A stretch of 64,000 bases of DNA from an uncultured Nitrospiraceae bacterium (GCA_963811165.1 CAWEQH010000001.1:288001-352000), one strand, 5' to 3'. Positions 37,553 to 59,567 are shown, counted from the stretch's first letter. The notes: generated by a model from the letters alone, not told the origin. Numbers and translations: made by a program.

Positions 37553-37716
37553 AGGACCCTCCGTAGGCATATTTTATTTAAGGCGAGAAAGTGCCGGGAA
37601 ATAAATCGACAGGGGAATAAAGGATACTGCAGGCCGTCGGGAAATGCGTCATGGCCGAACATTCTTGCAGCGGCGCCATGTAACTGAGTCAAGATAGCTG
37701 CCATTCAATTAGTTAT

Positions 37717-37759
37717 AGTATGGCACATTATTATTACAGAAACGTTACATTTCTGATAA
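37717..37759 (-). promoter_or_regulatory. Pho-box-like promoter of phoH
   Basis: Minus strand TTATC, GTAAC, GTAAT at 11-bp period, 10 bp, CATACT (or TACTAT). Confidence 0.65.
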
Positions 37760-37846
37760 ATATAACATCTTAGAAAAATAAAATTTTTGTTAAGTCCCAT
37801 TATTCGAAGGTCATTTCTTGAAAAGGCGGCCTGACTTTCCCGGTTA

Positions 37847-37900
37847 GTAATCGAAATGTAACGTTCCCTTAATGATAGTGTAAAATAGGCCGACTATAAT
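37847..37900 (+). promoter_or_regulatory. Pho-box-like promoter, distal to phoB2 (4 repeats)
   Basis: GTAAT 37847, GTAAC 37858, TTAAT 37869, GTAAA 37880, 10 bp, TATAAT. Confidence 0.82.
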
Positions 37901-38022
37901 ACCGATCATAAAAAGTAAGGAAGCAGCGGATAAAAATGGAGAAGGACGGCCCAATGCAGGCTCGGTTACGGTGTCCGTATCGGCCTCGCGGGGACTCATG
38001 GGGGCGTTATACAGGACGAGTT

Positions 38023-38076
38023 GTAACGGAAATGTAATCTTTCCTTCACACTGCGGTAATATTCGTTCTTTACACT
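38023..38076 (+). promoter_or_regulatory. Pho-box-like promoter, proximal to phoB2 (4 repeats)
   Basis: GTAAC 38023, GTAAT 38034, TTCAC 38045, GTAAT 38056, 10 bp, TACACT. Confidence 0.82.
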
Positions 38077-38116
38077 ACTTATACCGTATGACACATGATC
38101 TTAACCTATAGGCATT

Positions 38117-38812
38117 ATGGCTGATATCCCCAGAATTCTTGCTGTCGATGACGAACCCGATATTGTCGAGTTGCTCTCCTACAATCTCAGAAAGGAGGGG
38201 TTTACCGTTTCAACGGCATCCGACGCGGAGGAGGCACTGGAAAAGATCAGGGCTGAGGACTTTTCCCTCGTTCTTCTGGATCTTATGCTCCCCGGTATGC
38301 AGGGCATGGAACTCTGCCGTGTCCTTAAGAAAGACCCCAAAACGGCAAATCTCCCCATCATTATGCTTACGGCCAAGGTCGAAGAAGTAGACAGGGTCCT
38401 CGGCCTTGAGTCCGGGGCCGATGACTATATCACAAAGCCCTTCAGTCCGAGGGAACTCGTGGCGCGCGTTAAGGCCGTCTTAAGGAGGACCGCCCCGAAG
38501 GCCCCAGGAGAGGATATTATCCGGATCGGGGAACTCATGATAAACAGGGAAACATATGCCGTGACAAAGAATGATGTCTTGTTAGATCTCAGCGCCACGG
38601 AGTTTAAACTGCTTCTCTATCTCATTGAAAGAAGAGGCAAGATATACGACCGGGAACACCTACTCAAAGCCGTATGGAAGCATGAGGCCTATGTTGAACC
38701 GAGGACTATCGATGTGCATATCAGAAGGCTGAGAACGCAGATCGAAGACGACCCTTCGAATCCGAAGTATATCAAGACAAGAAGAGGCATCGGATATTAT
38801 TTTGACGTATGA
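38117..38812 (+). CDS. phoB: PhoB-like response regulator (copy 2, no adjacent kinase)
   Basis: Closely similar to 30894..31595; RTIDVHIRRLR recognition helix. Confidence 0.85.
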   Translation: MADIPRILAVDDEPDIVELLSYNLRKEGFTVSTASDAEEALEKIRAEDFSLVLLDLMLPGMQGMELCRVLKKDPKTANLPIIMLTAKVEEVDRVLGLESGADDYITKPFSPRELVARVKAVLRRTAPKAPGEDIIRIGELMINRETYAVTKNDVLLDLSATEFKLLLYLIERRGKIYDREHLLKAVWKHEAYVEPRTIDVHIRRLRTQIEDDPSNPKYIKTRRGIGYYFDV

Positions 38813-40098
38813 TGGACCCTGGCGAACACACTGATACCGGCGGTGCCCCCTTATCGCCTGCAGCATCGGGCAATCCCTTTCTCTGGGGTGTCGCAACATC
38901 TGCCTTTCAACTCGAAGGCTCTCCTTATGCAGACTGGACGACATGGGATGAAATACTGAGTCAAAAGCCCGACATCACCAACCATTACCTTCTTTACAAG
39001 GAGGACCTTGCCTTATTAAAAGACCTCGGGGTAAATGCGTACCGGTTCTCTCCTGAGTGGAGCAGGATACAGCCGCGCGAAAAGGTCTGGGACGAGAAGG
39101 CGATAAGGCATTATCAGGAGGTTGTAGAGATACTCGTCAAAAATAATATCGAACCCATGCTTACCCTGAATCACTTTACGCATCCCCTCTGGTTCATAAA
39201 AAAATATCCATGGCATGAAGAGGCATCAGTTGAAAAATTTCTGACATTTGCGGATAAGATGGTTAAGACCCTGGAAGGGGTGCGGTACTGGATCACCTTC
39301 AATGAACCGTACGTCCTTGTCCTGGCCGGCTACTTTGAGGGCTGTACGCCCCCCGCGATCAAAGATGCGTCACTTGGGGTGAAAGCCCTGACGAACATTC
39401 TTAAGGCCCATGGGGCGGCCTATGACCTCATCCACTCACATATTCCGGATGGGATGGTGAGCATAGCGCATAATATGGCGTCATTTGCCCCATGGAGCAG
39501 ATGGAACCCCCTCGACAGGCTTCTCGTAAAGATCACGAAACACTTTTACAACCATTCGCTCCTGGATGCCTTCCTAAACGGCACGCTGAGCGTGAAGTTC
39601 CCTTTCAGGAGGGTGCTCGAGATTGAAGTTCCTATCAAGGGGAAACTCGACTTTTTCGGGGTCAATTATTACACGAGGATGCATCTTCGTTTCAATCCTT
39701 TCAAGAAAATGGGGATTGAGATAAGACACAGGGACATCGATGGTCAGGGACTCACCGACATGGGATGGGAAATCCATCCGCGCGGACTTGAAAAGGTCCT
39801 GAGATACGCCTCGAAACTCAATGTCCCCCTGATAATAACGGAAAACGGAATCGCAACCCGCGACAGTCAAAGGAAGATAAAGTTTATGCAGGGGCATATC
39901 GATGTTCTCGAAAAGTGCAGACGGGAAGGGAGGGACATCCGAGGATATTTTTATTGGACCCTGATCGACAACTATGAATGGCTCCAGGGACTCGACTCAA
40001 GGTTTGGACTCTATACCGTTGACTTCCAGACCCTGGAGCGCAGACCCACGAACGCGGCCGCCTACTACTCATACCTTATTAAGAGCCGGAAACTCTGA
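38809..40098 (+). CDS. Glycoside hydrolase family 1 (beta-glycosidase)
   Basis: FLWGVATSAFQLEG, YRFS.EWSRI, TFNEP, ITENG, DNYEW. Confidence 0.95.
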   Translation: MMDPGEHTDTGGAPLSPAASGNPFLWGVATSAFQLEGSPYADWTTWDEILSQKPDITNHYLLYKEDLALLKDLGVNAYRFSPEWSRIQPREKVWDEKAIRHYQEVVEILVKNNIEPMLTLNHFTHPLWFIKKYPWHEEASVEKFLTFADKMVKTLEGVRYWITFNEPYVLVLAGYFEGCTPPAIKDASLGVKALTNILKAHGAAYDLIHSHIPDGMVSIAHNMASFAPWSRWNPLDRLLVKITKHFYNHSLLDAFLNGTLSVKFPFRRVLEIEVPIKGKLDFFGVNYYTRMHLRFNPFKKMGIEIRHRDIDGQGLTDMGWEIHPRGLEKVLRYASKLNVPLIITENGIATRDSQRKIKFMQGHIDVLEKCRREGRDIRGYFYWTLIDNYEWLQGLDSRFGLYTVDFQTLERRPTNAAAYYSYLIKSRKL

Positions 40099-40199
40099 TC
40101 TTGTCGCTATTACTTCCCTATGCCGGCGACAGTTCCCGCCTCCGATAAGTGCTACACTGCCCGTAGCACCTGCCCCAGAGAGTGAAACCGCCTGCAATC

Positions 40200-40253
40200 T
40201 TCACGGAAATGTAATCCTTCCTTAATAATGCTGTAACTATCATATCGTAAGCT
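40200..40253 (+). promoter_or_regulatory. Pho-box-like promoter of the PHP-glycosyltransferase operon (4 repeats)
   Basis: TTCAC 40200, GTAAT 40211, TTAAT 40222, GTAAC 40233, 10 bp, TAAGCT. Confidence 0.82.
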
Positions 40254-42201: not shown

Positions 42202-42232
42202 TGTATGAATGAGTATGACAAGGAGGTGCCAA

Positions 42233-42442
42233 GTGCATTGCCCGCTCAATCAAATCCCGATCGACAATCGGTCACACGCGGAGCATTCCTGCTGCCCTTA
42301 CAACGGAGCAGCCAACGGCATATGTTCCGCATCCCTTTCGACGATGATGATTGTTCCAAGCATGAGGGAGGGGTACTGTGAAAACGAGAATTACGATAAT
42401 TGCCCGATTTTCTTATCGAAAATCATGAGGAAAAAGACGTAA
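42233..42442 (+). CDS. Small Cys-rich protein (CPY-x7-C-x17-C-x7-CPIF, member B)
   Basis: AGGAGG then GTG; conserved Cys spacing. Confidence 0.7.
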   Translation: MHCPLNQIPIDNRSHAEHSCCPYNGAANGICSASLSTMMIVPSMREGYCENENYDNCPIFLSKIMRKKT

Positions 42443-45050: not shown

Positions 45051-45115
45051 GGTAGTGTCCTATTTTAATCAGGACGCTACCAAATCCCCCGAGGCGATAA
45101 GAAACATTTATCCGT

Positions 45116-45170
45116 GTAACAGAAAATTAACATTCCTTTAATAATCCATTAACAGACGGTTTGTTATGCT
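45116..45170 (+). promoter_or_regulatory. Pho-box-like promoter of Cys-protein-arsC (4 repeats)
   Basis: GTAAC 45116, TTAAC 45127, TTAAT 45138, TTAAC 45149, 11 bp, TG-n-TATGCT. Confidence 0.8.
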
Positions 45171-45190: not shown

Positions 45191-45379
45191 ATGAATATAA
45201 GATACATTATCTGTCCCCATCTTAAAGGCAGTTATGACGGAGCGGTCTGTAGCGGCGTCAACAAGCTGATCAAGAACATAGAAGGCGTCACCATTAAATT
45301 GTGCATGGGCAGGCATTACGAGGTGTGCTCGATATATCGGGAGTCTCTGCTGCCCCAGGAGCCTGTCAGTGCGGTGTAA
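45191..45379 (+). CDS. Small Cys-rich protein (CPH-x9-C-x17-C-x7-CSIY, member C)
   Basis: Strong GGAGG RBS; conserved Cys spacing. Confidence 0.72.
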
Positions 45380-45410: not shown

Positions 45411-45839
45411 ATGGAAAAAAAGAAGGTCCTTTTTGTATGCATCCATAACAGTGCCCGCAGCCAGATGGCGGAGGCATTCCTCAATCTTCTGGCAGGGGAC
45501 CGGTTTGAGGCTGAAAGCGCAGGCCTTGCTCCAGGCAGACTAAATCCTTTGGCGGTGGAAGTGATGAAGGAAATAGGGATCGATATCTCTCAGAAAGGAA
45601 CACAGGGCATCTTTGATTTTATCAAGAAGGGGAAACTGTTCCATTATGTGATCACCGTCTGTGACGAGGCGAACGCCGCCCGATGTCCTGTCTTCCCCGG
45701 ATATGCCAGGAGGGTGCACTGGAGTTTCAAGGACCCTTCGAGTCTTGATGGGCCGTACGAGGAGAGATTACGTAAGACAAGGGAAATCCGCGACGAGATA
45801 CGGGCCCGCATAGAAGGGTGGATAAAGGAAGTCAGTTAG
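45411..45839 (+). CDS. arsC: Arsenate reductase, LMW-PTP/thioredoxin-coupled family
   Basis: [21 protein letters not shown]....CPVFPG, HWSF.DP. Confidence 0.88.
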
Positions 45840-45918
45840 GTCTCTTTGCCCTTTTGCTGATTGCCGATGTGCCAATCTTATCGCTTCGCATAATTCAGCT
45901 CAGACCAGCCGGAAAAAT

Positions 45919-45973
45919 TTCATATTTCTTTAACCCAAATGACATCATGCCGTAAAAACCAAAATGATATCCT
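45919..45973 (+). promoter_or_regulatory. Pho-box-like promoter (4 repeats)
   Basis: TTCAT 45919, TTAAC 45930, GACAT 45941, GTAAA 45952, 11 bp, TG-n-TATCCT. Confidence 0.75.
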
Positions 45974-46290: not shown

Positions 46291-46644
46291 ATGGCTTGTA
46301 TCGATTATCTGCAGACGGAGGCAAGGTGTTCGAGAGGGATCCCGGTTGCGCATCTTTTCAGGCATTTCTTCTGTGAGTCGAAGCCTGAAAAATGCCCGAT
46401 TGCTTTGTGGAAAGTATCTTCTCGGGAGAAGGATAACAACCACAATCATCTTAAGGAGGAAGCCATGCAATGCCCGCATCTTTTGAAATGGGTGCTATCA
46501 TCTTGCAAAGCCGCGGAGAGACCCTATGTCCCGAGCCTTTTTGAGCTGGAGGAATATTGCAGAACCGGAGAACACAGAAAGTGCCCTTTTTACCTGAGAG
46601 ATATCGTCAGGACCAACACGGCGAGGGTCAAAGTGTCCGCATAA
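46291..46644 (+). CDS. Tandem Cys4-module protein; in-frame internal start at 46465 gives member D (CPH-x8-C-x17-C-x7-CPFY)
   Basis: GGAG RBS before ATG 46291 and AAGGAGG RBS before ATG 46465. Confidence 0.7.
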   Translation: MACIDYLQTEARCSRGIPVAHLFRHFFCESKPEKCPIALWKVSSREKDNNHNHLKEEAMQCPHLLKWVLSSCKAAERPYVPSLFELEEYCRTGEHRKCPFYLRDIVRTNTARVKVSA

Positions 46645-46936
46645 CATCTCATGACGCAGTATGTCTGACAATCCCTCTCTGGGGAACCCGCAGCATCGCA
46701 AGGGGCCCGCGTGGACCCTTAAGCGGACCGCGTCTTGAGAGAGTCTCCCCGCCTGAAGGCCGTAAACCCCTTCACGTATCGTTGACCATTGCCGTTAAAT
46801 ATTATCCCAGGCATGAATAAAGTGCCGCGGTTTTGCGGCAGAATTTAATAGGTAGGTAATGAAAGAAGTGTTAGACAATGTGCCGTTTCAGGCGATAGAC
46901 TGATTATATATTAAGAGATTTAAGGAGAGTATTCGT

Positions 46937-47230
46937 ATGGCATTGCTTGATGATGTATTTAAAGGCGGCAACGTGGTAACAGGCTTGGCTATCGGCATCG
47001 GAGCGGCGGTGCTCGGACCGGTTGTATTGCCTATACTGGCCGGGGCTGCGAAACCGTTGGCGAAGGCCGTGATAAAGGGGGGCCTTGCGCTATGTGCAAA
47101 AGGGAAGGAGTCAGCTGCTGAGTTCGGCGAGGTCTTTGAAGACATTGTTGCAGAAGCGAAAGCGGAACTCGCGGAAGAGCACGAAAAGGCAATTCCCGTT
47201 CCGCCTGCCGAAGCTGAAGAAAGTGTCTAA
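46937..47230 (+). CDS. DUF5132-like (FezA-like) small membrane protein
   Basis: GLAIGIGAAVLGP GxxxG helix, KPLAKAVIKGG, acidic E.FEDIVAEAKAE C-terminus; AAGGAG RBS. Confidence 0.8.
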   Translation: MALLDDVFKGGNVVTGLAIGIGAAVLGPVVLPILAGAAKPLAKAVIKGGLALCAKGKESAAEFGEVFEDIVAEAKAELAEEHEKAIPVPPAEAEESV

Positions 47231-47708
47231 TACCCCGGAAGCATATATAGGCCATAAGATGAATGGCAGATTGAGACTAAGGATCCCTTCGAAAAAAAAA
47301 GACGGCCTATATATGAAAAAAATTACCGAGGAATTCTCATCACTCCCGGGCATTGCGCAGGTAATCGTGAACACCGAGACATCGAGCGTTCTCTTCCTGC
47401 ATGATCTTTCGGAAGACGCAATCATGGGACATCTCAGTGCAAGCGGTCTCTTCCGGCTTTCCGGGGCTCCCACAGGCCGGGGAGACGTGCATCACGGAAT
47501 CAAAGGATGTTTTCGGGAGATGTCCGGCAAAGTCGAGAAGGCGACAGGAGGAACGATTGGCATCAGTGAAGTTGCCTTCCTCGCATTGTTTGGCGCCGGG
47601 GTTATGCAGATAGGTCGGGGGAATTTTACTGCGATCCCCTGGTACACGGCATTTTGGTATGCGCTTAATATTTTTCTGAAATCGGACGCACAGAAGGCCG
47701 GAGAATAG
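47223..47708 (+). CDS. HMA2-domain membrane protein (FezC-like)
   Basis: GTG overlapping the upstream stop; HKMNGRLRL, VNTETSSVL..HD, C-terminal hydrophobic segment with PWYTAFWYA. Confidence 0.78.
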   Translation: MSNTPEAYIGHKMNGRLRLRIPSKKKDGLYMKKITEEFSSLPGIAQVIVNTETSSVLFLHDLSEDAIMGHLSASGLFRLSGAPTGRGDVHHGIKGCFREMSGKVEKATGGTIGISEVAFLALFGAGVMQIGRGNFTAIPWYTAFWYALNIFLKSDAQKAGE

Positions 47709-47838
47709 CTGTACCCATTCAAAACGACGGTGAAGGTGCAGTGAGCCCGAAGAGTTCTATCGTTCTCATCAGCTTTTGAAAAAGGTGAACGGCTCAATAA
47801 ATTAAAGTAACTTTTCTCAACAGAGAAGGAGGTCAGTT

Positions 47839-48522
47839 ATGTCTCGGGAAGAAGTCATGCGCGGTGCCGGTTATGCAGAAGACGTAAGCAAGGCCGGGGC
47901 GACTGTAAAAGAGGGCGTAATCAGCAGCCTTAAAGGTCTCAATGAGATTGAGGCGGAAATCGTGAGTCTCGTGAGGAACACGGTCTCAAACACTTTGCGT
48001 GCAACGGGAGAAGTGGCGATCGAAAGTGTCTCCATTTCAAAGGATGTCATCAAGGGGGCTATCCAGGCCACCGAGGAGGTCGGAACAGGACTTATCCTGA
48101 GCACGAAAAGTGTTGCCAAAGGGGTAATCATGGGGGTGAGCGATGTAGGCGGCGATGTGGTTACGGTAGCAAGCCAGACAGTTAAAGGCGCGGTTAAGGG
48201 GGCCGCTGAAGTCGGCGCGGATGTCGCCCTTGTTGCAAGACGATCTGTCGATGGAGTGATCGAGGCGACAAAGGAGATAGGAGGGAATGTGGAAGAAGTC
48301 GCGAAAGTGGCGGTCGGAGGGGCGATTGAGGCTGCAGGGACAATCGGTAATACGGCGGTGAAGGCTGTGAGGGACATGCTCGTCGGCGTAGTCGAGGGCG
48401 TAAAGGAGATTGCGGGCGCGGCCTTGCCTAAACCGAGGACCTCTTCCCCAACAGCAACAAAAGCTCCTGCGTCAAAACCGGTTGCTGCGAAAAAAGAGGC
48501 TGCGACCAGGAAAAAGAAGTAA
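47839..48522 (+). CDS. Hypothetical 11/22-residue-repeat amphipathic helical protein with Pro/Ala/Lys tail
   Basis: AAGGAGG RBS; about 16 consecutive 11-mers (e.g. AIQATEEVGTG, AVKGAAEVGAD, VIEATKEIGGN). Confidence 0.85.
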   Translation: MSREEVMRGAGYAEDVSKAGATVKEGVISSLKGLNEIEAEIVSLVRNTVSNTLRATGEVAIESVSISKDVIKGAIQATEEVGTGLILSTKSVAKGVIMGVSDVGGDVVTVASQTVKGAVKGAAEVGADVALVARRSVDGVIEATKEIGGNVEEVAKVAVGGAIEAAGTIGNTAVKAVRDMLVGVVEGVKEIAGAALPKPRTSSPTATKAPASKPVAAKKEAATRKKK

Positions 48523-48534
48523 GAATAATACCCC

Positions 48535-51500
48535 GTGGTTCGGCCTGTACACGTTGCGGTAAAAGGAAGGGCCCGCTTTAAAGTAGCGGGCCTTTACCGG
48601 TCGGCCCTGCTCAAGGAGCGGATTGAACTCACCCTTAATTCACTCGACGGAATAAGAGAGGCATCGGCCGACACACGTACAGGCAATGTTTTAGTATATT
48701 TCAATTCCGAAAATACTCCCGGGTCAATCGCATCGGCAATCGCCGCTTCAATTTATGACTACAAATCTCAGCATCGTAACAACAATTCGCCGGAAAACAA
48801 AAAAGACGCAGTCGGCATCATACCAGCGCCGCGGGAAGAAGCTTCCAAAGAGCAGGTCAGGCCTGCTATCACGAGGAGGAAGTTAAGAAAGAGCATCATC
48901 AAGGCAGAGGAGCAAAAGCCTGATCCCTGGCACCAGATGGATGTCTGTGAAGTGGCCGGGCGGTTTGGCACCTCCCAGCACTACGGGCTTCCCAGTGACA
49001 TCGCAAAAACGAATCTGAAGCGGTATGGTCTCAATGTCCTTCCGGAGGCGGTGCCCCGCTCCGGGTTAAGCATCTTTCTGGGCCAGTTTAATTCACTTCC
49101 TGTGGCTCTGCTCGGCGTTGCTGCCGGGATTTCAATAGCCACGGGAGGCGTCGCCGACGCGATCGTAATTGCGGGGGTGGTGGTTATCAATGCGGTAATA
49201 GGGTATGGGACTGAAACCCAGACCGAAAAGACGATCCATGCATTGAAAAGCCTTGTCAGACCTTCTGCAACGGTCAAGCGGGACGATCAAATCATAGAGC
49301 TGGGAGCAGAGGAAGTCGTCCCCGGAGATCTGCTGATCCTCAGGCCAGGCAGTTATGTGCCGGCAGATGCAAGACTGCTTGAGACATATCACCTCAGTGT
49401 TGACGAGTCTGCCCTTACGGGAGAGAGTCTCCCTGTAATGAAGACAAGTCTGCCTTGCGCTGTCGAAGAAATCCCCCTTGCAGACAGGATCAACATGGTC
49501 TATATGGGGACTCTAGTGACCGGGGGGCAAGGGACCGCCGTGGTCGTGGCAACGGGCAGGTTTACCGAGATAGGAAAGATCCAGGCGCTCGTGGGAGAGG
49601 CGGAATCTCCAGACACCCCAATGGAGCGGCAGCTTCATAAGATGGGCACACAGCTAGTCTTTATAAGCGGAGCTGTCTGCGGACTTGTCTTTATTGTCGG
49701 ACTTCTGCGCGGATACGGTTTTTTGGAGATGCTCAAGAGTTCCATATCTCTTGCCGTTGCCGCAGTGCCGGAGGGACTCCCTACCGTTGCAACTACAACC
49801 CTGGCCCTGGGGATCAGGGACATGAGGCGGCACAACGTGCTCATCAGGCATCTAAACGCGGTCGAAACGCTGGGGGCCGTGCAGACGATCTGTCTTGACA
49901 AGACGGGGACAATCACGATGAACAGGATGTCGGTAGTCGCTGTCCATACCGGCATGAAACGATATGAGGTCTCAAATGGGACAATCGCGGCTTCACGGCA
50001 GAAGGTGAGCCCCTATTCAGTCGACGAACTTCTGAGACTCTTGCACGTGAGCGTGCTCTGCAGCGAAAGCGAGGTCGAAAGGGAAAAAGGTACTTATGCG
50101 GTCAGCGGCTCTCCTACCGAAAACGCCCTGATCTATATGGCGTTGAACGCCGGCATTAATGCCGTTTCTCTCAGGGAGAGGTTCCCCGTGTTGAATATCA
50201 CTCATCGTTCGGAAAGTCACAATTATATGTCTACTGTCCACAAATCTGAAAATGGATCGGTCATCATTGCGGTAAAGGGGAGCCCCGGAGAGGTCCTTTC
50301 AATCTGCAGCTGGCACATGAAAGACGGAGAGAAGCTTCCTTTGACGGAGGAGGAAATGCTTTTCATAGAGACGGAAAATGAACGCATGGCCGGTCAGGCG
50401 CTCAGGGTCCTCGGCGTTGCCTATTCAGCAAAGGACGATGAGGCGGCCCTTTCCGAAGATAGAAGCGATCTTCATGAAGACCTGATATGGCTCGGGCTCG
50501 TCGGTATGGCAGACCCCATCAGGGAAAATGTGAAAGAACTGGTACACGGGTTCCACGAAGCCGGAATCGATACGGTCATGATAACGGGCGACCAGAGCCC
50601 TACCGCGTATGCGATAGGAAAGGAATTAAATCTGAGCGACAACGGAGACCTCGAAATCCTTGACTCTACGCACCTTGCGAAAATCGAGCCCGAGGTCATG
50701 AAGGCCCTCTGTGAAAGGGTACACGTCTTTGCCCGCGTCAGTCCTGCACATAAGCTCCAGATTGTCCAGGCGCTCCAGTCCGCCGGGAAAGTGGTTGCAA
50801 TGACCGGAGACGGGATCAACGACGGCCCGGCGCTCAAGGCAGCGGATATCGGGATCGCCATGGGCCATACGGGCACCGATGTCGCCCGCGAGGTGGCCGA
50901 CGTGATCATCGAAGACGACAATCTCGAAACAATGCTTATCGCGGTAAGCGAAGGAAGGACGATCTATAACAATATCAGAAAGTCCGTCCACTTTCTCCTT
51001 TCGACCAACCTCAGCGAGATCATGGTGATGTTCACCGCAATATCGGGAGGACTCGGACAGCCGCTCAATGCGATGCAGCTGCTGTGGATCAATCTTATTA
51101 GCGATATATTCCCGGGGCTTGCCCTTGCCCTTGAACTTCCGGAGCCGGATGTGTTGAGCCGCTCCCCCCGCGACCCACACGAGCCGATTGTAAGAAATTC
51201 CGATTTCAAGCGGATAGCTTTCGAGTCGGCAATGCTTTCCGCTGGTTCCCTGGGGGCTTACGGGTATGGCATCGCCCGCTATGGGATAGGACCGCGGGCA
51301 GGTTCGCTTGCATTCCTCAGCCTTACGGCAGGACAGCTTCTTCACGCCCTGAGCTGCCGTTCCGAGCAGCATAGCATGTTCAGCGCCGAGAGACTGCCCC
51401 GAAACAAGTATCTTGAAATGGCACTGGGCGGTTCCTTTGCGCTTCAGATACTGGCAGTGACTGTCCCCGGTCTTAGGAGACTTTTGGGAATAGGTCCTCT

Positions 51501-51594
51501 CAGTATCCTCGACGGTCTCGTGATCGGCGGAAGCGCCGCTTTTCCGCTTCTTGTAAACGAGGCGACGAAATCCTCCTTGAGGTTGGCAAGATGA
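48535..51594 (+). CDS. P2A-like (Ca2+-type) P-type ATPase with N-terminal HMA2 domain
   Basis: TGES, VAAVPEGL, DKTGT, KGSP, TGDGIND, STNLSE, QLLWINLISD; N-terminal HVAVKGRARF. Confidence 0.93.
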   Translation: MVRPVHVAVKGRARFKVAGLYRSALLKERIELTLNSLDGIREASADTRTGNVLVYFNSENTPGSIASAIAASIYDYKSQHRNNNSPENKKDAVGIIPAPREEASKEQVRPAITRRKLRKSIIKAEEQKPDPWHQMDVCEVAGRFGTSQHYGLPSDIAKTNLKRYGLNVLPEAVPRSGLSIFLGQFNSLPVALLGVAAGISIATGGVADAIVIAGVVVINAVIGYGTETQTEKTIHALKSLVRPSATVKRDDQIIELGAEEVVPGDLLILRPGSYVPADARLLETYHLSVDESALTGESLPVMKTSLPCAVEEIPLADRINMVYMGTLVTGGQGTAVVVATGRFTEIGKIQALVGEAESPDTPMERQLHKMGTQLVFISGAVCGLVFIVGLLRGYGFLEMLKSSISLAVAAVPEGLPTVATTTLALGIRDMRRHNVLIRHLNAVETLGAVQTICLDKTGTITMNRMSVVAVHTGMKRYEVSNGTIAASRQKVSPYSVDELLRLLHVSVLCSESEVEREKGTYAVSGSPTENALIYMALNAGINAVSLRERFPVLNITHRSESHNYMSTVHKSENGSVIIAVKGSPGEVLSICSWHMKDGEKLPLTEEEMLFIETENERMAGQALRVLGVAYSAKDDEAALSEDRSDLHEDLIWLGLVGMADPIRENVKELVHGFHEAGIDTVMITGDQSPTAYAIGKELNLSDNGDLEILDSTHLAKIEPEVMKALCERVHVFARVSPAHKLQIVQALQSAGKVVAMTGDGINDGPALKAADIGIAMGHTGTDVAREVADVIIEDDNLETMLIAVSEGRTIYNNIRKSVHFLLSTNLSEIMVMFTAISGGLGQPLNAMQLLWINLISDIFPGLALALELPEPDVLSRSPRDPHEPIVRNSDFKRIAFESAMLSAGSLGAYGYGIARYGIGPRAGSLAFLSLTAGQLLHALSCRSEQHSMFSAERLPRNKYLEMALGGSFALQILAVTVPGLRRLLGIGPLSILDGLVIGGSAAFPLLVNEATKSSLRLAR

Positions 51595-52802
51595 AAAAAG
51601 ACTTCATATTTACCTCCGAATCGGTTACCGAAGGCCATCCCGACAAACTCTGTGATCAGATCAGCGACGCGCTTGTCGACCACTTCCTTCAGCAGGACCC
51701 TTTTTCGCGGGTCATTGCCGAATGTGCCGTATCAACGGCGATCATTTTCATCGCCGCGAGGTTTTCGTCCGACGCCAGTGTCGATTTCCCGAATATCGCC
51801 AGACAGGTCATCAACCAGATCGGGTATGACCAGCAGGCCTTTAACGCCAAGACCTGCAGCATAGTCACAAGCCTCAAGGAAGTGCCCTCCGAGGAAAACC
51901 GGCGCTTTGACGAGAGAAATCTGACGGAAGACGAAATCGACGCTATCCCCGTCCGTAATCAGGTCACGGTATTCGGATTTGCCTGCAACCAGACGCCCTC
52001 GCTGATGCCCCTTCCGATCTGGCTCGCCCATCGACTTGCACGAAAACTGACCGCAGTGAGACTCCAAAAGGTACTTCCCTATCTGGCGCCCGACGGAAAA
52101 ACCCAGGTCGGCGTGGAGTATAAAAATGGAAGGCCCTACCGGGTCCATACCATAACGGTCATAGCCAGTCAGAGTAAGACGGAGAAGTCGGGCGGCCCCG
52201 ACCTTAAGAGTCTTTATGGTGATATGCTGGATACCGTCATTCGTCCTGCCTTTGTTGACGAGGAGATCAGGCCCGATGCCGACACAAGGATATTCATAAA
52301 CCCCGATGGTCCATTTATCACGGGCGGGCCCTCAGTGCATTCAGGGCTCACGGGGAGGAAAAATGCGATCGACACCTATGGTGAATATTCCAGGCAAAGC
52401 GGCGCGGCGCTCAGCGGCAAGGACCCTCTTCGGATAGACAGAATCGGCGCGTATGCCGCCCGGTATGCGGCAAAAAATATTGTTGCCGCGGGCATCGCCG
52501 CCGAATGCGAAATCCAGTTGAGTTATTCCATAGGGCTTTCCCGTCCCGTAAGCATCCAGGTGGAAACGTTCGGCACAGGCCGGATTTCCGACGAAGAGAT
52601 CTCCAGGATTATCGAAGGCCGGTTTGATTTCCGCCTCGCAGGGATTGTCCGCCAGTTCAACCTCAGATTTCTCCCTTCCATAATCAAGGGAGGTTTTTAC
52701 AGAAAACTCGCCTCGTATGGTCATGTCGGCAGAATGGATATCGGTCTTCCCTGGGAATTGACGGATAAGGCAGGCATAATTCGTGACGAAGTTGCCGGGT
52801 GA
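51591..52802 (+). CDS. Divergent methionine adenosyltransferase (MetK) paralog
   Basis: FTSESVTEGHPDK, PDGKTQV, GLTGRK..DTYG, SGKDP present; GEI, QS.DI and GAGDQG motifs altered. Confidence 0.88.
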   Translation: MKKDFIFTSESVTEGHPDKLCDQISDALVDHFLQQDPFSRVIAECAVSTAIIFIAARFSSDASVDFPNIARQVINQIGYDQQAFNAKTCSIVTSLKEVPSEENRRFDERNLTEDEIDAIPVRNQVTVFGFACNQTPSLMPLPIWLAHRLARKLTAVRLQKVLPYLAPDGKTQVGVEYKNGRPYRVHTITVIASQSKTEKSGGPDLKSLYGDMLDTVIRPAFVDEEIRPDADTRIFINPDGPFITGGPSVHSGLTGRKNAIDTYGEYSRQSGAALSGKDPLRIDRIGAYAARYAAKNIVAAGIAAECEIQLSYSIGLSRPVSIQVETFGTGRISDEEISRIIEGRFDFRLAGIVRQFNLRFLPSIIKGGFYRKLASYGHVGRMDIGLPWELTDKAGIIRDEVAG

Positions 52803-52851
52803 GAGACTCATTACGAGCCTCATAATTGAATAGACATTATTCAGAATTCAG

Positions 52852-52953
52852 AAAATCTCCCCCCCTCTTTACCAGAGAGGGGATTATCCCTCTCCTTTTC
52901 TCCCCGGCGAACCCGCCTGTGTGCGGTGACAAAGGGAGGGCAGGTGGGATTTT
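52852..52953. repeat. REP/MITE-like palindromic element between convergent genes
   Basis: Inverted ends aaaatctccc/gtgggatttt; internal cccctct-ttaccag-agagggg hairpin; similar cccctttt-ctga-agggggat at about 10046-10064. Confidence 0.4.
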
Positions 52954-53001
52954 ATAAAACCGTTTCTTCAACAGGGAGGTACGAGATATCCTCTTCCTAG
53001 T

Positions 53002-53877
53002 TTAGACGAAATCTTGCGTGAGATACTCTGCCGGTTCTTTCTGCTGTTTTTGTTCGTAGAGTTCAAGATAGATGTCTGAGAACCCGTACTTCTTGCGAAG
53101 ACTCTGTTTCATCTCCTTCACCCCGGCGCGGTCATAGGTCGTCCCGTTTGTTCTAATTCGTACCAGCAAGATAATTTTTTCCGGGGACAGACCCCATATG
53201 TGGAGATCCTTCACGCTGCTTATATCAGGGAAATTCGTATAGATGAATTTTTCAATCTCCGCGGGGTCTATCTTTGCGGGGTTGCCTTCCATGAGGATAT
53301 GCACGCTCTCCTTTACCAGAAAGTAGGTCGGATACGCGACGAGGAGTCCAATGATGACTGCGGTAAGGGGGTCCAGGAAATAGAGGCCCGTGAACTTTAT
53401 GACAATGGAAGAGGTTATGACCCCGACTGACCCCAGTGCATCGTTTGCGATCAGCAATAGCGCGCCTTTAAGGTTGATGTCTGCCGAGTGCCTGTAAAAC
53501 ATGATGAACCCATACGCATTGACTGCAAGTCCTATCACTGCGATTAAGAGTACCTTGTCTGCCTCGAGTGGCTGGGGATGCATGATCTTGCTATACGCGT
53601 CGGCAAAGACATAAAAAAGGAGAAACCCTACCAGTATCCCGTTGAACAGGCCCGAGATCACCTTGGCCCGTTCGTACCCGAATGTCTTGGTTTTGGTAGG
53701 CAGGCGCTTTGCGAGCCGCGCAACATAAAACGCGACGAATTGACCGGTGATATTGATCGCCATGAAAGAGGCATCGGTAACCAGGGCCAGGCTTCGGTAA
53801 TAAAGCCCGCCGAAGAGTTCGACAAAGAAGTATGCAATCGTCAGAAGGAGAACAGTTTTTTGCTGATTACTATCCAT
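53002..53877 (-). CDS. Cation diffusion facilitator (CzcD-like)
   Basis: SLALVTDA, TFGYER, INLKGA, DALGSVGV, ILMEG.P, DLHIW. Confidence 0.92.
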   Translation of the reverse strand: MDSNQQKTVLLLTIAYFFVELFGGLYYRSLALVTDASFMAINITGQFVAFYVARLAKRLPTKTKTFGYERAKVISGLFNGILVGFLLFYVFADAYSKIMHPQPLEADKVLLIAVIGLAVNAYGFIMFYRHSADINLKGALLLIANDALGSVGVITSSIVIKFTGLYFLDPLTAVIIGLLVAYPTYFLVKESVHILMEGNPAKIDPAEIEKFIYTNFPDISSVKDLHIWGLSPEKIILLVRIRTNGTTYDRAGVKEMKQSLRKKYGFSDIYLELYEQKQQKEPAEYLTQDFV

Positions 53878-54141
53878 GTCTTAACAGTGTTGACAGCCAG
53901 CTTTTCGGAGAGTCTTCCAAATAATGGCCAACGACATCTTTCACAGCCTTACCGAGCGAGATGTACATACTTTAATGCCTCGCTAACACTGTGTCCAACG
54001 ATTAATTCATTACTTGCCTATCCTATAGCAATAAAAGCAGAGGCAATTGGCAACCCGAAGGGCTCTTAACGCTGTGGTATAGTAATAAAAGGCCGGGGAT
54101 ATTCCGTAAAAAAAGGGAAACGAAAGGGAGGTCTTATTGAA

Positions 54142-54486
54142 ATGGACTACTACATCCATTATACGCATGGAAGGATGAGAATACAGACCCCTCATCTTCA
54201 CGAAAATCCCGCCAAGGCGAAAGAACTTGAGGACTTTCTCAAAAAAGTTTCGGGCATACTGTCGGTCGAAACAAATCCCGTTACGGGCAGCGCCCTGTTT
54301 TATTTTGACGAGAAAAAGATAAACTGCGAACAGATAATCTGCATGCTCGAAAAGAACCATTATCTTTGTCTCCTCAAGGCAGAGACGAACGATCAAGTCG
54401 TTAAAAAAACAGCCGAGAAGGTCCTGGGATTTGCCGAGAAGGTCGTTGTCGATTCCCTCGGGGAGGGACCCATTGAGGGTGAATGA
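54142..54486 (+). CDS. HMA2-type domain protein
   Basis: YYIHYTHGRMRI, VETNPVTGSALFYFD; GGGAGG RBS. Confidence 0.8.
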   Translation: MDYYIHYTHGRMRIQTPHLHENPAKAKELEDFLKKVSGILSVETNPVTGSALFYFDEKKINCEQIICMLEKNHYLCLLKAETNDQVVKKTAEKVLGFAEKVVVDSLGEGPIEGE

Positions 54487-54792: not shown

Positions 54793-55271
54793 ACAAAATG
54801 ATTGAGGTGCCTTTCTCAGATCGACTCTTCATCATAGGGCCTGCACGCTAAGGGTATCCGGTCTCTTTATGAGTAAAGAATAACAATTTCTCCTATCAAA
54901 GTGAATGCAATCATAGGCAGATAATGAAAAAACAGCAGAGGGTATCTCACATCCTCCGGAGCTTTGGTGATACACTTTAATCCAGAGAACCGATAGGCCA
55001 AATCCTTTCGAGAAGGAGGAGATGAGTCGGGTACTACAAGCAACGTTCCGCAAATTTTCGTAGGATAAGCGATGGCAAGTCGGCCTGGTTACGTATAAAC
55101 ATTTGTTGTGCCTATTACAGGCGGAGGGGTGTAATGAATGCTGAAGCGACCGGTAACGTACATGACGGCCCTTTCCGAAGCCATACCATGACATAGAGAA
55201 GGGCGATTACGGAGCAGTCTTTTCTATTTGCAATGTTCTTTTTTTACTTTTTTTGTAAGGATGAGGGAATC

Positions 55272-55493
55272 ATGGAAGGTGTATGTCCGTATGACAACGA
55301 TGCGGAAGAGAGACAACATGCGAAGGCCATCCAGATGCTCGCAAGAGATTTGGGCGTGCCCGAGAAGAAGATAAGAGAACTTTACGAGGAATTTCTTTGC
55401 AGTATCAAGGGAGGGGCAAGGATAAAGGATTATCTCACTGTTTTGGCGAGTCGTAACGTAAAAGAGGTGATAAGGAGGGGTTCGCTTCAGTAA
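55272..55493 (+). CDS. DUF3562-like protein
   Basis: I..LA....P...I..LY......GARIKDYLTVL..R.V.E pattern; GAGGG RBS. Confidence 0.72.
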   Translation: MEGVCPYDNDAEERQHAKAIQMLARDLGVPEKKIRELYEEFLCSIKGGARIKDYLTVLASRNVKEVIRRGSLQ

Positions 55494-56791: not shown

Positions 56792-56895
56792 AGCTATAGG
56801 ATATTTCGCTGATCTTGGCGAAGGGCACAGGGGATGGATATGCGACTAACGATCCCTTTGTGAAATAGTGATTGCATCCGATGAGGAGATCGAAA

Positions 56896-57708
56896 ATGAA
56901 GATAAGGCCTGTAGCACTGATGGGGGTAACCATTTTTTTCGTACTTCAGATAGGCACTATCGTGTACGGTTTCAAGCCGGCTGATCTGGATAGATTGAGG
57001 GCAACCAATCAATGTCCCCAGTGTGACCTGAGCGGGGCGGACCTGAGCGGGCTGGACCTGGCGGGGCAGGATCTCAACGGGGCGGACCTGAGCGGGGCGA
57101 ACCTGAGCGGGACGGACCTGAGCGGGACGGACCTGAGCGGGGTGAACCTTAACGGGGCGAACCTGGGCGGGGCGAACCTCAACGGGGTGGACCTGAGCGG
57201 GGCGAACCTCAACGGGGCGGACCTAAACGGAGGGGACCTCAACGGGGGAAACCTGGACGGGGTGGACCTGAGCGGGGCGAACCTCAACGGGGTGACCCTA
57301 AGCGGTGTGAACCTGGACGAGGTGAACCTCAGAGGGGCGGACCTGGAAGGGGCCAACCTAGAAGGGGCCAACCTCAACGTGGTGAACCTGGACGAAGTGA
57401 ATCTGACCGGGGTGAACCTGGACAAGGTGAACCTGGCTGGCACAGACACGGCCGAAACGAACCCGGATGGAACGAACCCAAAAGAGACTAGCACAAAGGG
57501 AGCTAATCCGCATGAAGCGAACCCGGATGGAGCGAATCCGGATAGCGCTGATCAGAACGTGCCAAGCGCGGATAGTGCGTCTTTGAGGGACGCAGATCTT
57601 TCAACCTTGGATAAGCAGGGCAATAGATCCAGCAACAACGGCAGCCCTCTTTTGACTGCCGGACAGCAGATAGTCACCATAAAAGGGGGTGAGATAAAGA
57701 TTCATTAG
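56896..57708 (+). CDS. Exported pentapeptide-repeat protein
   Basis: Signal-like N-terminus, L.ATNQCPQCDL cap, A(D/N)LxG repeats; GAGGAG RBS. Confidence 0.9.
   Translation: MKIRPVALMGVTIFFVLQIGTIVYGFKPADLDRLRATNQCPQCDLSGADLSGLDLAGQDLNGADLSGANLSGTDLSGTDLSGVNLNGANLGGANLNGVDLSGANLNGADLNGGDLNGGNLDGVDLSGANLNGVTLSGVNLDEVNLRGADLEGANLEGANLNVVNLDEVNLTGVNLDKVNLAGTDTAETNPDGTNPKETSTKGANPHEANPDGANPDSADQNVPSADSASLRDADLSTLDKQGNRSSNNGSPLLTAGQQIVTIKGGEIKIH
57025..57440 (+). repeat. 15-bp coding tandem repeat (pentapeptide units)
   Basis: (g/a)acct(g/c)a(g/a)cggggcg units in frame with the CDS. Confidence 0.9.
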
Positions 57709-57764
57709 GCATTGCAGGGTGAGAAGCGTCAATAACAGCAGCATACCATAAACAAAAAGGAGAG

Positions 57765-59567
57765 ATGAATACCATGAAGAAAAAAGTATTGACTAGTTTA
57801 GTTTTTGTGCTGGCCTTTGCTGTGTTCAGCACGGCGGCTTTCGCAGGCATTCTGAAAAAGCCCTACTTGATTTACCCGGGGGTGAACACCCAGATGGAGG
57901 TGGTCTGGCAGGACGACACCGCGAGCGAGACGAATACCATTAGTTGGGGCACCGACATGACGTACAGCATGGGTAATGTGACGGCGCCTGAGTTCGGCGA
58001 CAGGCAGCACAAGTACACAATCACCGGACTGACGCCGAACAAGAAATACTACTACCAGGTGGCTGACCAGACCAGCGGCGCCATCTACGGCGCCGGATCG
58101 TTTATCACTGCGCCCCACGGAAGCGCAACTGCGGTAAGGTTCCTCGCATTGGGTGATTCCAGGAGCCAGCCATTTGCCCTGGACAACGTGATGCAGGCGA
58201 TGCGCAGCTTTTATTCACAGCCAGGCAACGAGGACTATCAACGCCTTACCATTCATAACGGGGACTGGGTGAGCACCGACGGCGAAAGCTACTGGACGAC
58301 CCAGTGGTTCGACGCGACCAAGACGGACATCGTCGCATTTACGGCGAATTCGCCCATCGACGGATGCAAGGGTAATCATGATAACGCTTCAGGGTACAGC
58401 GCTACCTTCCCGAAGTACTTTCCCTTCCCGTATACGAATATGACTTCTAAAACAGTTGCTCCTACAACAGATGCCAGTGGTAATCCTTACTACAATAACC
58501 TCTACTGGTCCTTCGATTACGGTCCGGTCCACTTCACCGTTGTCGACGAGTACTCAAGCTATGCTCCAGGCTCCCCCCAGTACAACTGGCTCGTAAACGA
58601 TCTGGCCACGACAACAAAGCCGTGGAAGATCCTAATATACCACGAGCCGTCGTATTCCGCCGGCAAAGACGGCGACAACATCACTGCGAGGGCGCTCGAA
58701 CCTCTCATCACTCAATATAATGTGGACCTGGTCTATGCCGGCCACAGCCACAACTATGCCCGCACCGGGGCCTATACTTCCGCCCAGGCAAACGGTGACC
58801 AGATCGCCCTGAATGTCCCGCATATCACCAGCGGCGGCGGCGGCGCACCAGTTTATCAGCCCGATATGACCAATGAGGGCAACTTTCCGCACGTAATCAC
58901 AGCCTGGCCGGCCATGGAGTTCATGACCTTCGACGTAGATGGGGAAAACCTCACCATGACCGCCTATCAGGTAAACAACGTGAGTACGTCCGCTATCCAG
59001 CCTTCGTCGGCGCTGTCCCTTTCACCGATCGAGACTGTTGCTCTCCATCACTTTACCGACGTCTCATCGCAGGTAAGCGTAAAAACCACCCACATGACTT
59101 ACAATCCTGCGACCCAGCTATACCGGTGCAACCTGGAGATCACTAATAACGGCCCCGCCCTCACCGGTAACATCCACGTTGTTCTGGACGGCATTGTCAA
59201 CCTCCAGGGGGTCGGCAATGCAGATAACGAATACAGCACCACCACTCCGAAAATTGCCTCAAAGATCGCCCAGAACACCGGCCTCATCACGGACGTCACG
59301 CTGGTCAATGCAACCGGTTCGAACAATGGTGAGCCGATGATCCGGGCTAAACATACCGGATTGGCCAAAAGAGACTCGGTCGTCGTTCCGCTATCGTTCA
59401 GCAATCCGAATAACACAGCGATTACCTTTACGCCTGTGGTGTTGCTTGAACGAGAACATGGGCGTCAGTGCAACCGGCGCGAACAATGTCGAACCGATGA
59501 TGATAAGGGCTACGACCAATGGTCTGGCAGCCGGCAAGAAGACAGTCATTCCGCTGAAGGTCGGTGA
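57765..59567 (+). CDS. Secreted purple acid phosphatase-family metallophosphoesterase with FN3-like N-domain
   Basis: Signal peptide (AFA); GDSR, NGDWV, GNHD, YHEP, AGHSH, YWSFDYGPVHF. Confidence 0.9.
   Translation: MNTMKKKVLTSLVFVLAFAVFSTAAFAGILKKPYLIYPGVNTQMEVVWQDDTASETNTISWGTDMTYSMGNVTAPEFGDRQHKYTITGLTPNKKYYYQVADQTSGAIYGAGSFITAPHGSATAVRFLALGDSRSQPFALDNVMQAMRSFYSQPGNEDYQRLTIHNGDWVSTDGESYWTTQWFDATKTDIVAFTANSPIDGCKGNHDNASGYSATFPKYFPFPYTNMTSKTVAPTTDASGNPYYNNLYWSFDYGPVHFTVVDEYSSYAPGSPQYNWLVNDLATTTKPWKILIYHEPSYSAGKDGDNITARALEPLITQYNVDLVYAGHSHNYARTGAYTSAQANGDQIALNVPHITSGGGGAPVYQPDMTNEGNFPHVITAWPAMEFMTFDVDGENLTMTAYQVNNVSTSAIQPSSALSLSPIETVALHHFTDVSSQVSVKTTHMTYNPATQLYRCNLEITNNGPALTGNIHVVLDGIVNLQGVGNADNEYSTTTPKIASKIAQNTGLITDVTLVNATGSNNGEPMIRAKHTGLAKRDSVVVPLSFSNPNNTAITFTPVVLLEREHGRQCNRREQCRTDDDKGYDQWSGSRQEDSHSAEGR

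Follow-up and report, generated by a model that had tools for sequence, protein, structure and literature searches.

A Five-Gene Operon Joining a P2A-Like ATPase to Putative PacL/Fez-Type Accessory Proteins and a MetK Paralog in a Phosphate-Starvation Island of an Uncultured Thermodesulfovibrionales Bacterium

Results

A Co-conserved Five-Gene Operon Flanked by CoBaHMA Genes and a CDF Transporter

We analyzed a stretch of 64,000 nucleotides (the window; C1:288001-352000, on a contig of 691 kb) from the 3.66-Mb, 95.4% complete assembly of an uncultured bacterium of the Thermodesulfovibrionales (Nitrospirota; GCA_963811165.1), whose nearest named DUF5132 record, 95% identical, belongs to a metagenome-assembled genome (MAG) of Thermodesulfovibrionales. 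Positions 46937-52802 hold a five-gene operon, on the + strand throughout, that encodes a small DUF5132 membrane protein, a protein in which a CoBaHMA domain (HMA_2, Pfam PF19991) is followed by a helical hairpin, an 11-residue repeat protein, a P2A-like P-type ATPase with a CoBaHMA domain fused to its N-terminus and a paralog of MetK (table 1). The junctions of these genes fit a single operon: the hairpin-protein gene opens with a GTG (47223) and shares 8 nt with the end of the DUF5132 gene, the ATG of the MetK paralog overlaps the ATPase stop by 4 nt and a terminator-like hairpin closes the unit. Three further CoBaHMA genes and one CDF gene, the latter convergent with the operon, flank it. 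An earlier reading of the bare sequence (the sequence-only reading) had placed these genes and their motifs correctly, inasmuch as the open reading frames (ORFs), Pfam domains, pump motifs, repeat periodicity and the acidic tail FEDIVAEAKAELAEE were all recovered, and the flanking CDF transporter and two stand-alone HxxxGRxR proteins (46010 and 54142) that it had named are assigned by Pfam to CDF and HMA_2.

Within the genome these families are confined to one place. HMA_2 matches number five in the whole assembly and all fall inside C1:334025-352918 (~19 kb), the fifth gene (C1:352565-352933) lying just past the end of the window, and the only DUF5132 gene of the genome is that of the operon; the clustering therefore goes beyond chance.

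The neighborhood was surveyed with the DUF5132 alignment in one genome per species, which yielded 122 relatives, and the best 80 loci were kept. All five genes are present in 40 of these 80 loci, and another 4 hold the pump and the MetK paralog without the repeat protein (together the 44 P2+MetK loci of table 1). The others comprise 9 loci, mostly of Alphaproteobacteria, with a 42-44% identical CoBaHMA-fused P2 pump and no MetK, 8 cyanobacterial loci with a CoBaHMA-fused P1B-like pump of ~760 residues, 17 loci cut by a contig end and 2 of other kinds. Of the 60 loci with at least 6.5 kb of downstream sequence, 49 hold the pump, 41 hold MetK, 38 hold the repeat protein and 36 have the whole set in colinear order, and MetK accompanies the CoBaHMA-fused P2 pump in 41 of the 49; the hairpin protein is encoded directly downstream of DUF5132 in 66/76 loci. 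Order and orientation are kept across phyla, with full operons (by record titles) in Nitrospirota, Desulfobacterota, Ca. Deferrimicrobium and Ca. Acidoferrales (Acidobacteriota), so that the gene set singled out by the sequence-only reading is indeed co-conserved.

A query with the ATPase recovered a full-length ortholog, N-terminal domain included, in 11 of 60 relatives, the rest having only 33-44% identical P2 pumps whose alignment starts near residue 130. Eight of the relatives' loci are untruncated, and in each the genes for DUF5132, the hairpin protein, the repeat protein, the pump and MetK follow one another in this order, except that the repeat protein is missing from one. Relatives of the pump are numerous: among protein clusters formed at 90% identity, the best 120 are 62-93% identical to the window pump and 111 of them carry PF19991. 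All sources name them only generically. In Nostoc sp. NIES-4103, the pump and MetK paralog occur as a pair alone on a second replicon, with no adjacent DUF5132 (L109, G065:C2:62000-78000), and the chromosome carries a P1B-like pump with DUF5132 and the hairpin protein. Thermithiobacillus tepidarius DSM 3134 encodes DUF5132, the hairpin protein, the pump and the MetK paralog.

Table 1. Features of the operon and its surroundings, in window coordinates.
Feature	Position	Strand	Basis and remarks
Pho-box-like array, 11-bp GTTACA-type units	45099..45142	-	Position weight matrix (PWM) score 22.6; upstream of small Cys ORF and low-molecular-weight phosphatase gene
Low-molecular-weight phosphatase / ArsC-like gene	45411..45839	+	Pfam LMWPc, 64.4 bits
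Second Pho-box-like array	45902..45945	-	PWM score 19.1; ~65 nt upstream of the 46010 gene; orientation as at pstS
Stand-alone CoBaHMA protein, 89 aa	46010..46279	+	HMA_2 36.4 bits; homolog in 16/44 P2+MetK loci
Small four-Cys protein, 59 aa, with Shine-Dalgarno site	46465..46644	+	Conserved beside the operon
Conserved promoter element TAGGYAAGTAATGAAAG, then -35-like TAGACA and -10-like hexamer	46849..46901	+	Upstream-region alignment; promoter-like match 46872-46901
DUF5132 protein, N-terminal GxxxGxG transmembrane helix and Glu/Ala-rich helix	46937..47230	+	Pfam 58.5 bits, E 6.8e-16
CoBaHMA domain, amphipathic helix, helical hairpin (FezC-like architecture)	47223..47708	+	HMA_2 45.5 bits, profile positions 10-153 of 154
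11/22-residue amphipathic repeat protein, basic tail	47839..48522	+	~16 units of 11 residues
P2A-like P-type ATPase, N-terminal CoBaHMA domain, 1019 aa	48535..51594	+	Pfam E1-E2_ATPase, Cation_ATPase_N, Cation_ATPase_C
MetK paralog	51591..52802	+	Three MetK Pfam domains; TIGR01034 373.7 vs cut-off 309.4
Terminator-like hairpin, two-way, closing the operon	52859..52894	.	After MetK
CDF transporter, His-free transport site	53002..53877	-	Pfam CDF; promoter element in common with the operon
Promoter element, second copy in the genome (TAGGCAAGTAATGAATT and, next to it, TGGACA)	54004..54020	-	Upstream of CDF
Stand-alone CoBaHMA protein, 114 aa	54142..54486	+	HMA_2 57.2 bits; homolog in 32/44 P2+MetK loci
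DUF3562 protein	55233..55493	+	Pfam 52.9 bits; frequent operon neighbor, 21/44 P2+MetK loci

A P2A-Like Pump and Its CoBaHMA Partners

The ATPase carries the motifs PEGL (residue 412), STNLSE (823), WINLISD (851) and TAGQLLH (931) along with the catalytic DKTGT (455) and TGES (295), and its best solved relatives are LMCA1 (1.1e-145) and SPCA1 (2.4e-142), followed by SERCA. Through the LMCA1 alignment, E413, N825 and E828 correspond to SERCA E309, N768 and E771, and N853, S856, D857 and Q934 to N796, T799, D800 and E908, the residue equivalences and ligand roles across SERCA, LMCA1, PMCA and SPCA being those given in the LMCA1 preprint. E413, N825, E828, N853, S856 and D857 are conserved in ~50 aligned orthologs; the M8 position is Gln in the orthologs, or Gly in one subclade. 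By these equivalences, Ca2+ site II is complete and site I partly kept, and the P2A/SERCA-type ion ligands named from the sequence alone are confirmed. The pump thus resembles LMCA1, SPCA1/PMR1 and SERCA in its site II ligands, DKTGT and TGES but differs from these Ca2+-ATPases in its N-terminal CoBaHMA domain. LMCA1, PMCA and SPCA have Ala at the E771 position, where the operon pump keeps Glu; the Gln at the E908 position is shared with PMCA. Assignment to the P1B-6 class of FezB was considered and rejected, as the pump has VPEGL in M4 and the Cation_ATPase_N and Cation_ATPase_C domains instead of D[Y/F]SCA and HNxxT.

The N-terminal domain of the pump (residues 5-90) matches HMA_2 with 26.5 bits (E 7e-6), under the cut-off of 30 bits that the other three domains of the window (46010, 47223 and 54142) exceed. 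The four domains bear the basic motifs HHVPGRIRL, GHKMNGRLRLR, VHVAVKGRARFK and HYTHGRMRI, and they show the features that define CoBaHMA, namely a ferredoxin-like HMA fold, a strand beta0 with His, a basic beta1 and no CxxC. The sequence-only reading had called the domain Cys-free; this is accurate for the CxxC metal loop, which none of the domains contains, but not for cysteine as such, since 54142 has three Cys and 46010 has one. The AlphaFold2 (AF2) model of the hairpin protein (pLDDT 81 overall and >90 in the domain) has the order b0-b1-a1-b2-b3-a2, strand beta0 included, followed by three helices. A Foldseek comparison of this model with the PDB gave weak HMA rows only, none at E<=0.001. 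Models of DUF5132, of the CoBaHMA proteins and of the repeat protein are lacking in NCBIfam.

A Probable Distant Kinship of the DUF5132 Protein with FezA and PacL

In the DUF5132 protein, the transmembrane segment GLAIGIGAAV is followed by EDIVAEAKAELAEE, and the tail ends in IPVPPAEAEESV, without His and without a His/Asp metal-binding motif of the kind found in PacL. All 47 orthologs match DUF5132 in Pfam. The ferrosome pump FezB is defined by D[Y/F]SCA and HNxxT, has an R-rich N-terminal motif and is encoded in the order fezA-fezB-fezC (Grant et al., bioRxiv 10.1101/2020.01.10.902569). DUF6110 proteins, which are typically encoded with P1B-6 pumps and have no C-terminal metal-binding motif, have been called PacL-like, and PacL itself clusters Ctp pumps in dynamic efflux platforms of the plasma membrane by means of a GxxG motif in its transmembrane segment and of Glu/Ala repeats in contact with the N-terminal domains of the pumps (bioRxiv 10.1101/2021.10.01.462712; EMBO J PMC13043812).

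For comparison, a back-translated FezB signature was searched in 401 Desulfobacterota genomes, where it occurs at 18 places in 17 genomes and a control pattern gave no matches; FezA and FezC were assigned by gene position in these P1B-6 loci, not from the D. magneticus proteins. All 17 full-length comparison ATPases also have HNxxT and start with H-x3-GR-x-R-x-R. With custom hidden Markov models, a DUF5132-like ORF was found directly upstream of the P1B-6 pump in 13 of the 18 loci; Pfam matches these FezA-position ORFs to DUF6110 in 10/13 at E<=0.01 (5 above cut-off), and 3 have sub-cut-off DUF5132 scores. Downstream, ORFs in the FezC position match HMA_2 above cut-off in 10 of the 11 tested. 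An hhalign comparison of the DUF5132 alignment with that of the FezA-position proteins gave 95.7% probability (E 9.8e-9) over 78 columns, approximately full length, which suggests that DUF5132 and DUF6110 are related, distantly and at the profile level only. Homology to Fez-type parts, as proposed by the sequence-only reading, is hence detectable in the FezC-position proteins, in the FezA-position proteins and in the common H-x3-GR-x-R start of the pumps, even though the pump cores of the fez loci and of the operon belong, by their motifs, to different classes. The repeat protein and the MetK paralog were not found in any of the 18 fez-type loci. A complex prediction for DUF5132 with the CoBaHMA-hairpin protein scored 0.02 and was used neither for nor against an interaction.

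A large Feo-linked cluster in one Desulfobacterota MAG (L105, G063:C8:1-14000) comprises, besides FeoB and two copies of FeoA, two pumps, one a CPC-type P1B pump headed by a CoBaHMA domain and the other a P1B-6 pump truncated where the contig ends. It further encodes a weak CoBaHMA protein and another HMA_2 protein, a GxxxG protein and a true Pfam DUF5132 member (28.3 bits). This MAG has the P2-type operon as well (L063).

The Repeat Protein and the MetK Paralog of the Operon

In the repeat protein, the autocorrelation is 0.43 for a lag of 11 residues and 0.59 for a lag of 22, and hydrophobicity recurs every 3.66 residues. An 11/3 amphipathic periodicity is typical of proteins that bind lipid surfaces, such as apolipoproteins, perilipins and alpha-synuclein. 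The protein is encoded in 40 of the 44 P2+MetK loci, with a mean column identity of 80% across 10 orthologs; it matches no Pfam family, and the protein atlas returned only unnamed clusters. Its AF2 model is all-helical and of low confidence (pLDDT 48), and only the secondary structure was used. Two weak PHROGs matches (E 0.002-0.004, to tape-measure and protease families) were set aside as compositional; the other three of the four proteins scanned had no PHROGs match. The genome of the closest relative has a second copy, 81% identical, beside a DUF3562 gene ~4 kb downstream of the operon (L013:16443-16997 (= L024)).

The housekeeping MetK of the genome is encoded on contig C4 and is 45% identical to the paralog. 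We compared 39 operon-linked paralogs with E. coli MetK (whose numbering is used) and with the genome's own MetK. In all 39, H14, D16, K17, E42, D163, R244, K245, K265 and D271 are kept, as is K165 in 37; the MetK literature describes these residues as triphosphate and metal ligands, and E55, Q98, D238 and K269 as methionine ligands. None of the latter four survives: E55 is replaced by Arg in 33, Val in 4 and Met in 2, Gln is found at position 98 in 0/39, and D238 and K269 have become His and Arg in 39/39 (the window paralog reads R, V, H and R at the four positions). Additionally, the GAGDQG loop reads P-V-R/K-N-Q-V. With its methionine ligands lost, the paralog is not classed as a working MetK, despite its fold and TIGR01034 score, and the sequence-only description of a divergent MetK is borne out. 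We infer from the retained residues that it still binds ATP or triphosphate and probably acts on another second substrate.

A Common Promoter Element in a Phosphate-Starvation Island

The transport site of the CDF protein reads FxxxN and LxxND in 8/8 operon-linked copies, compared with HD-HD in the other CDF of the genome. An identity as a Zn-type CDF (ZitB/CzcD) was rejected, as HxxxD is present in neither TM2 nor TM5 of these 8 copies. The promoter element TAGGYAAGTAATGAAAG occurs 47 times in the 80 loci, 43 of these before the DUF5132 operon, and good copies in the genome number two, one before 46937 and one before the CDF gene. The element occurs also near the second repeat-protein copy of the closest relative (L013).

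The Pho box of this organism consists of 3-5 tandem, 11-bp-spaced units of the GTTACATTTC type. Arrays at pstS, at the genes for a PhoB-like regulator and PhoH, and before the PHP-GT21 genes were used to build a weight matrix, with which only 25 positions genome-wide score at least 20 (training arrays included) and 49 score at least 18. Six of the eight best nontraining arrays of the 691-kb contig lie within a 30.5-kb stretch around the operon, among them the two of table 1 (at 45142 and 45945) that precede the low-molecular-weight phosphatase and 46010 genes, and an array is found within 300 nt of DUF5132 in 13/53 orthologous operons, against 68/2280 background windows. The island contains PhoU_div-PHO4 (a Pit-type transporter), PhoBR-like genes, PhoH and a secreted purple acid phosphatase, and pstSCAB-phoU lies just outside the window. 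The sequence-only reading had described a phosphate-starvation island with no Pho box directly upstream of 46937, and both the matrix scan and the gene content agree. Its further suggestion of a (poly)phosphate store finds no support, as neither PPK1 (PF02503) nor PPK2 (PF03976) was matched in the 95.4%-complete genome, despite the large Pho regulon. An H+-pyrophosphatase (H+-PPase) gene is located at C1:272559-274583, 13 kb from the window.

Pho arrays are also carried by an operon in which GH1, PHP and GT21 genes follow that of a second PhoB-like regulator (window 37700-40240 and C1:353250-353670), which suggests phosphate-sparing glycolipid synthesis. At C1:354925-357828, the pstC, pstA, pstB and phoU frames are split into several ORFs, pointing to frameshifts or MAG assembly errors.

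Other Genes Near the Operon

The LMWPc gene is an occasional neighbor of the operon (6/44 P2+MetK loci). The four-Cys protein at 46465, for which no Pfam family was matched, has tblastn matches in 7 of 11 relatives' loci and in 11 of the 44 P2+MetK loci. It belongs to a family of mini-proteins of 59-77 residues, also without a Pfam family, with the pattern CP(H/L)L...C...EYC...(H)xxCP(F/I)(Y/F)L, whose members lie in the Pho island and elsewhere (window 42209-42442, 45191-45379 and 46465-46644; C4:70888, C4:352429, C4:377387 and C4:381734) and which may be metal- or redox-sensing. Further along the window (56872-59567), a pentapeptide-repeat protein is followed by the purple acid phosphatase, a protein of 600 residues with a long extra C-terminal region. 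Across the window end, C1:351076-352464 encodes a 462-residue protein with a C-terminal membrane part that resembles HupE/UreJ (judged by eye from sequence), and C1:352930-353232 encodes a Zn-ribbon protein in the same orientation as the fifth CoBaHMA gene; both adjoin the pstS Pho arrays.

Discussion

Comparison with Known Systems

In its gene content, the operon appears to be a P2-type form of the PacL/Fez accessory module to which two parts, the repeat protein and the MetK paralog, have been joined that have no counterpart in either known system. It resembles the ferrosome fez loci in that the gene for a small GxxxG membrane protein precedes that of the pump, the pump has an R-rich, HMA-like head and CoBaHMA proteins are encoded alongside, and in a starvation-type control, which here would be exerted by the Pho system. 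It differs in its P2A-like pump core (PEGL, where fez pumps are P1B-6 with D[YF]SCA and HNxxT), in its helper (DUF5132 instead of DUF6110) and in its neighbors, which are Pho/Pst genes and not Feo or Fur (Feo is seen only in the comparison locus L105); the repeat protein and MetK paralog belong to the operon and are absent from the fez-type loci. As in the PacL/Ctp effluxosome, a P-type ATPase shares its operon with a small protein that joins a GxxG transmembrane helix to one rich in Glu and Ala, whereas its helper has neither a DUF1490/DUF6110 Pfam match nor a His-rich metal-binding tail, its pump is P2-type, and the CoBaHMA proteins, repeat protein and MetK paralog are without PacL counterparts.

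A third setting is the ccyA neighborhood of Microcystis aeruginosa PCC 7806, in which ccyA and the Ca2+/H+ exchanger gene cax are adjoined by genes for two DUF5132 proteins and one CoBaHMA-helical-hairpin protein that are coexpressed with them, in an organism that forms intracellular carbonate (iACC) inside a compartment (bioRxiv 10.1101/2024.07.07.602159). The likeness to the operon lies in the placement of both families next to a Ca2+ transporter; the differences are that this transporter is a CAX antiporter there and a P-type pump here, that Microcystis is a carbonate-forming phototroph, and that neither a MetK paralog nor a repeat protein is reported at that locus. As DUF5132 has the layout of PacL, the outcomes documented for the accessory module would be two, the ferrosome as an organelle and the efflux platform of PacL, with ccyA/cax as one correlative setting.

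A Candidate Membrane Platform for Cation Export

The reading that we favor, tentatively and with somewhat less than even confidence, is the export of a cation (Ca2+ or Mn2+) by way of a membrane platform. We hypothesize that the P2A-type pump clears the cytosol of a hard divalent cation, for which Ca2+ is the likeliest candidate and Mn2+ a possible one, and that the DUF5132 protein, as a PacL/FezA-type helper, and the CoBaHMA proteins hold and stabilize it in a specialized patch of membrane. By analogy with PacL and Ctp pumps, the GxxxG helix of DUF5132 would drive clustering and its Glu/Ala-rich helix would dock on the basic CoBaHMA domains that the pump and the hairpin protein carry. On its cytosolic face the patch may be coated or shaped by the repeat protein; the enzyme derived from MetK, with its translation coupled to that of the pump, would have ATP or a triphosphate as substrate rather than make S-adenosylmethionine; and the coregulated, His-free CDF may move cations in the same direction as the pump. 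The most likely destination would be the periplasm or cell surface, where export could serve either to rid the cell of the cations brought in with metal-phosphate when phosphate is short or, on the model of the PMR1-type pumps of secretory pathways, to supply Ca/Mn to exported phosphoesterases of the Pho regulon.

Several observations weigh against this reading. None of the 47 DUF5132 orthologs has a direct Pfam match to DUF6110 or DUF1490. The pump scores below the NCBIfam equivalog cut-offs for Ca-ATPases (624.8 vs 798.3 for the PMR1 type; 551.1 vs 703.4 for the SERCA type), and its pairing of Glu at the E771 position with Gln at the E908 position is unlike the pairings in SERCA, LMCA1, PMCA and SPCA, which makes the assignment of the ion less firm. 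The best Pho array directly before 46937 scores just 9.9 and the nearest good arrays are ~1 kb upstream; Pho control of this copy would therefore require read-through from 45.1/45.9 kb or another regulator of the conserved element. PacL, moreover, needs only two genes; a repeat protein of high conservation and an enzyme, with CoBaHMA proteins numbering four or five, seem to exceed the needs of a plain efflux platform. The other two settings of these families, ferrosomes and the ccyA/cax genes of the cyanobacterium with intracellular carbonate, are compartments.

The reading proposed from the sequence alone was an intracellular, membrane-bound store, which we consider possible but doubtful. The pump and the CDF would load Ca2+ or Mn2+ into a vesicle shaped by the DUF5132, hairpin and repeat proteins; the cation would be deposited with phosphate, pyrophosphate or carbonate, and starvation control would ready the store in advance, in the way that ferrosomes are primed by a lack of iron. 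Counterparts of all three core Fez parts in the operon, the coexpression of the DUF5132 and CoBaHMA-hairpin families with ccyA and a Ca2+/H+ exchanger in Microcystis, the 11/3 periodicity of a repeat protein retained in nearly all P2+MetK loci, two transporters that point out of the cytosol and the nearby H+-PPase gene are all consistent with such a store. Yet the same helper family makes plasma-membrane platforms in mycobacteria, the operon encodes neither a phosphate or carbonate transporter nor a lumen-directed protein, and storing phosphate mineral during phosphate starvation needs an additional assumption. In acidocalcisomes, a Ca2+-ATPase loads a membrane-bound store rich in cations and phosphate; the H+-PPase gene of this genome is a likeness to them, whereas the failure to find PPK1 and PPK2 is a difference and counts against the store. 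The step from shared parts to a mineral compartment, which the sequence-only reading had taken, is accordingly weakened: the Fez homology holds, but DUF6110 proteins are PacL-like and PacL builds plasma-membrane platforms, so the parts alone do not predict a compartment, and we prefer the export platform to a storage organelle.

The accessory proteins might instead be regulators only, the CoBaHMA domains and DUF5132 sensing anionic lipids or small anions on behalf of a pump for Mg2+, Na+ or H+, with the repeat protein and MetK paralog in separate stress roles. The authors who described CoBaHMA are cited as proposing regulation through anionic lipids, and the sub-cut-off equivalog scores and the Gln or Gly in M8 would suit a different ion; the complete and conserved site II ligands, the overlapping ATPase and MetK frames with their joint occurrence (41/49 loci, and as a lone pair on the Nostoc replicon) and the tie of the repeat protein to the operon (40/44) make this account rather improbable. 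That the genes are chance or mobile-island neighbors without a joint function, as their patchy distribution (an ortholog in 11/60 relatives) could suggest, is hard to reconcile with an order and orientation kept across phyla, overlapping frames and a common promoter element, and we hold it to be very improbable indeed.

Significance

We found no earlier description of this operon in the searchable literature, though sources outside that search may have drawn the link between PacL and FezA before or may name P2 pumps fused to CoBaHMA. The locus joins three separate lines of research, on ferrosomes, mycobacterial effluxosomes and cyanobacterial intracellular carbonate, in all of which one accessory module, a small protein with a GxxxG and a Glu/Ala helix together with CoBaHMA domains, would be at work, here on a P2A Ca-type ATPase. 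At its furthest, the operon may be the blueprint of an undescribed organelle or membrane domain that sequesters Ca2+ or Mn2+ and would be to hard cations what the ferrosome is to iron. Phosphate starvation would prime it, a PacL/FezA-like protein and CoBaHMA proteins would build it under a coat of amphipathic repeats, and a MetK-derived enzyme would feed or process a phosphate-anhydride anion at its surface, in bacteria without known polyphosphate kinases; we offer this as a speculative prospect and judge it unlikely, if well short of negligible. Should the module determine the site and mode of action of a P-type pump, the operon would provide a second, non-iron test case. It would also offer a MetK-fold enzyme with apparently new chemistry and a possible phosphate-starvation-tied handling of Ca/Mn in anaerobes of sediment and soil, and since carriers are in culture (Thermithiobacillus tepidarius DSM 3134, Mesorhizobium and a Nostoc strain), the question is directly testable.

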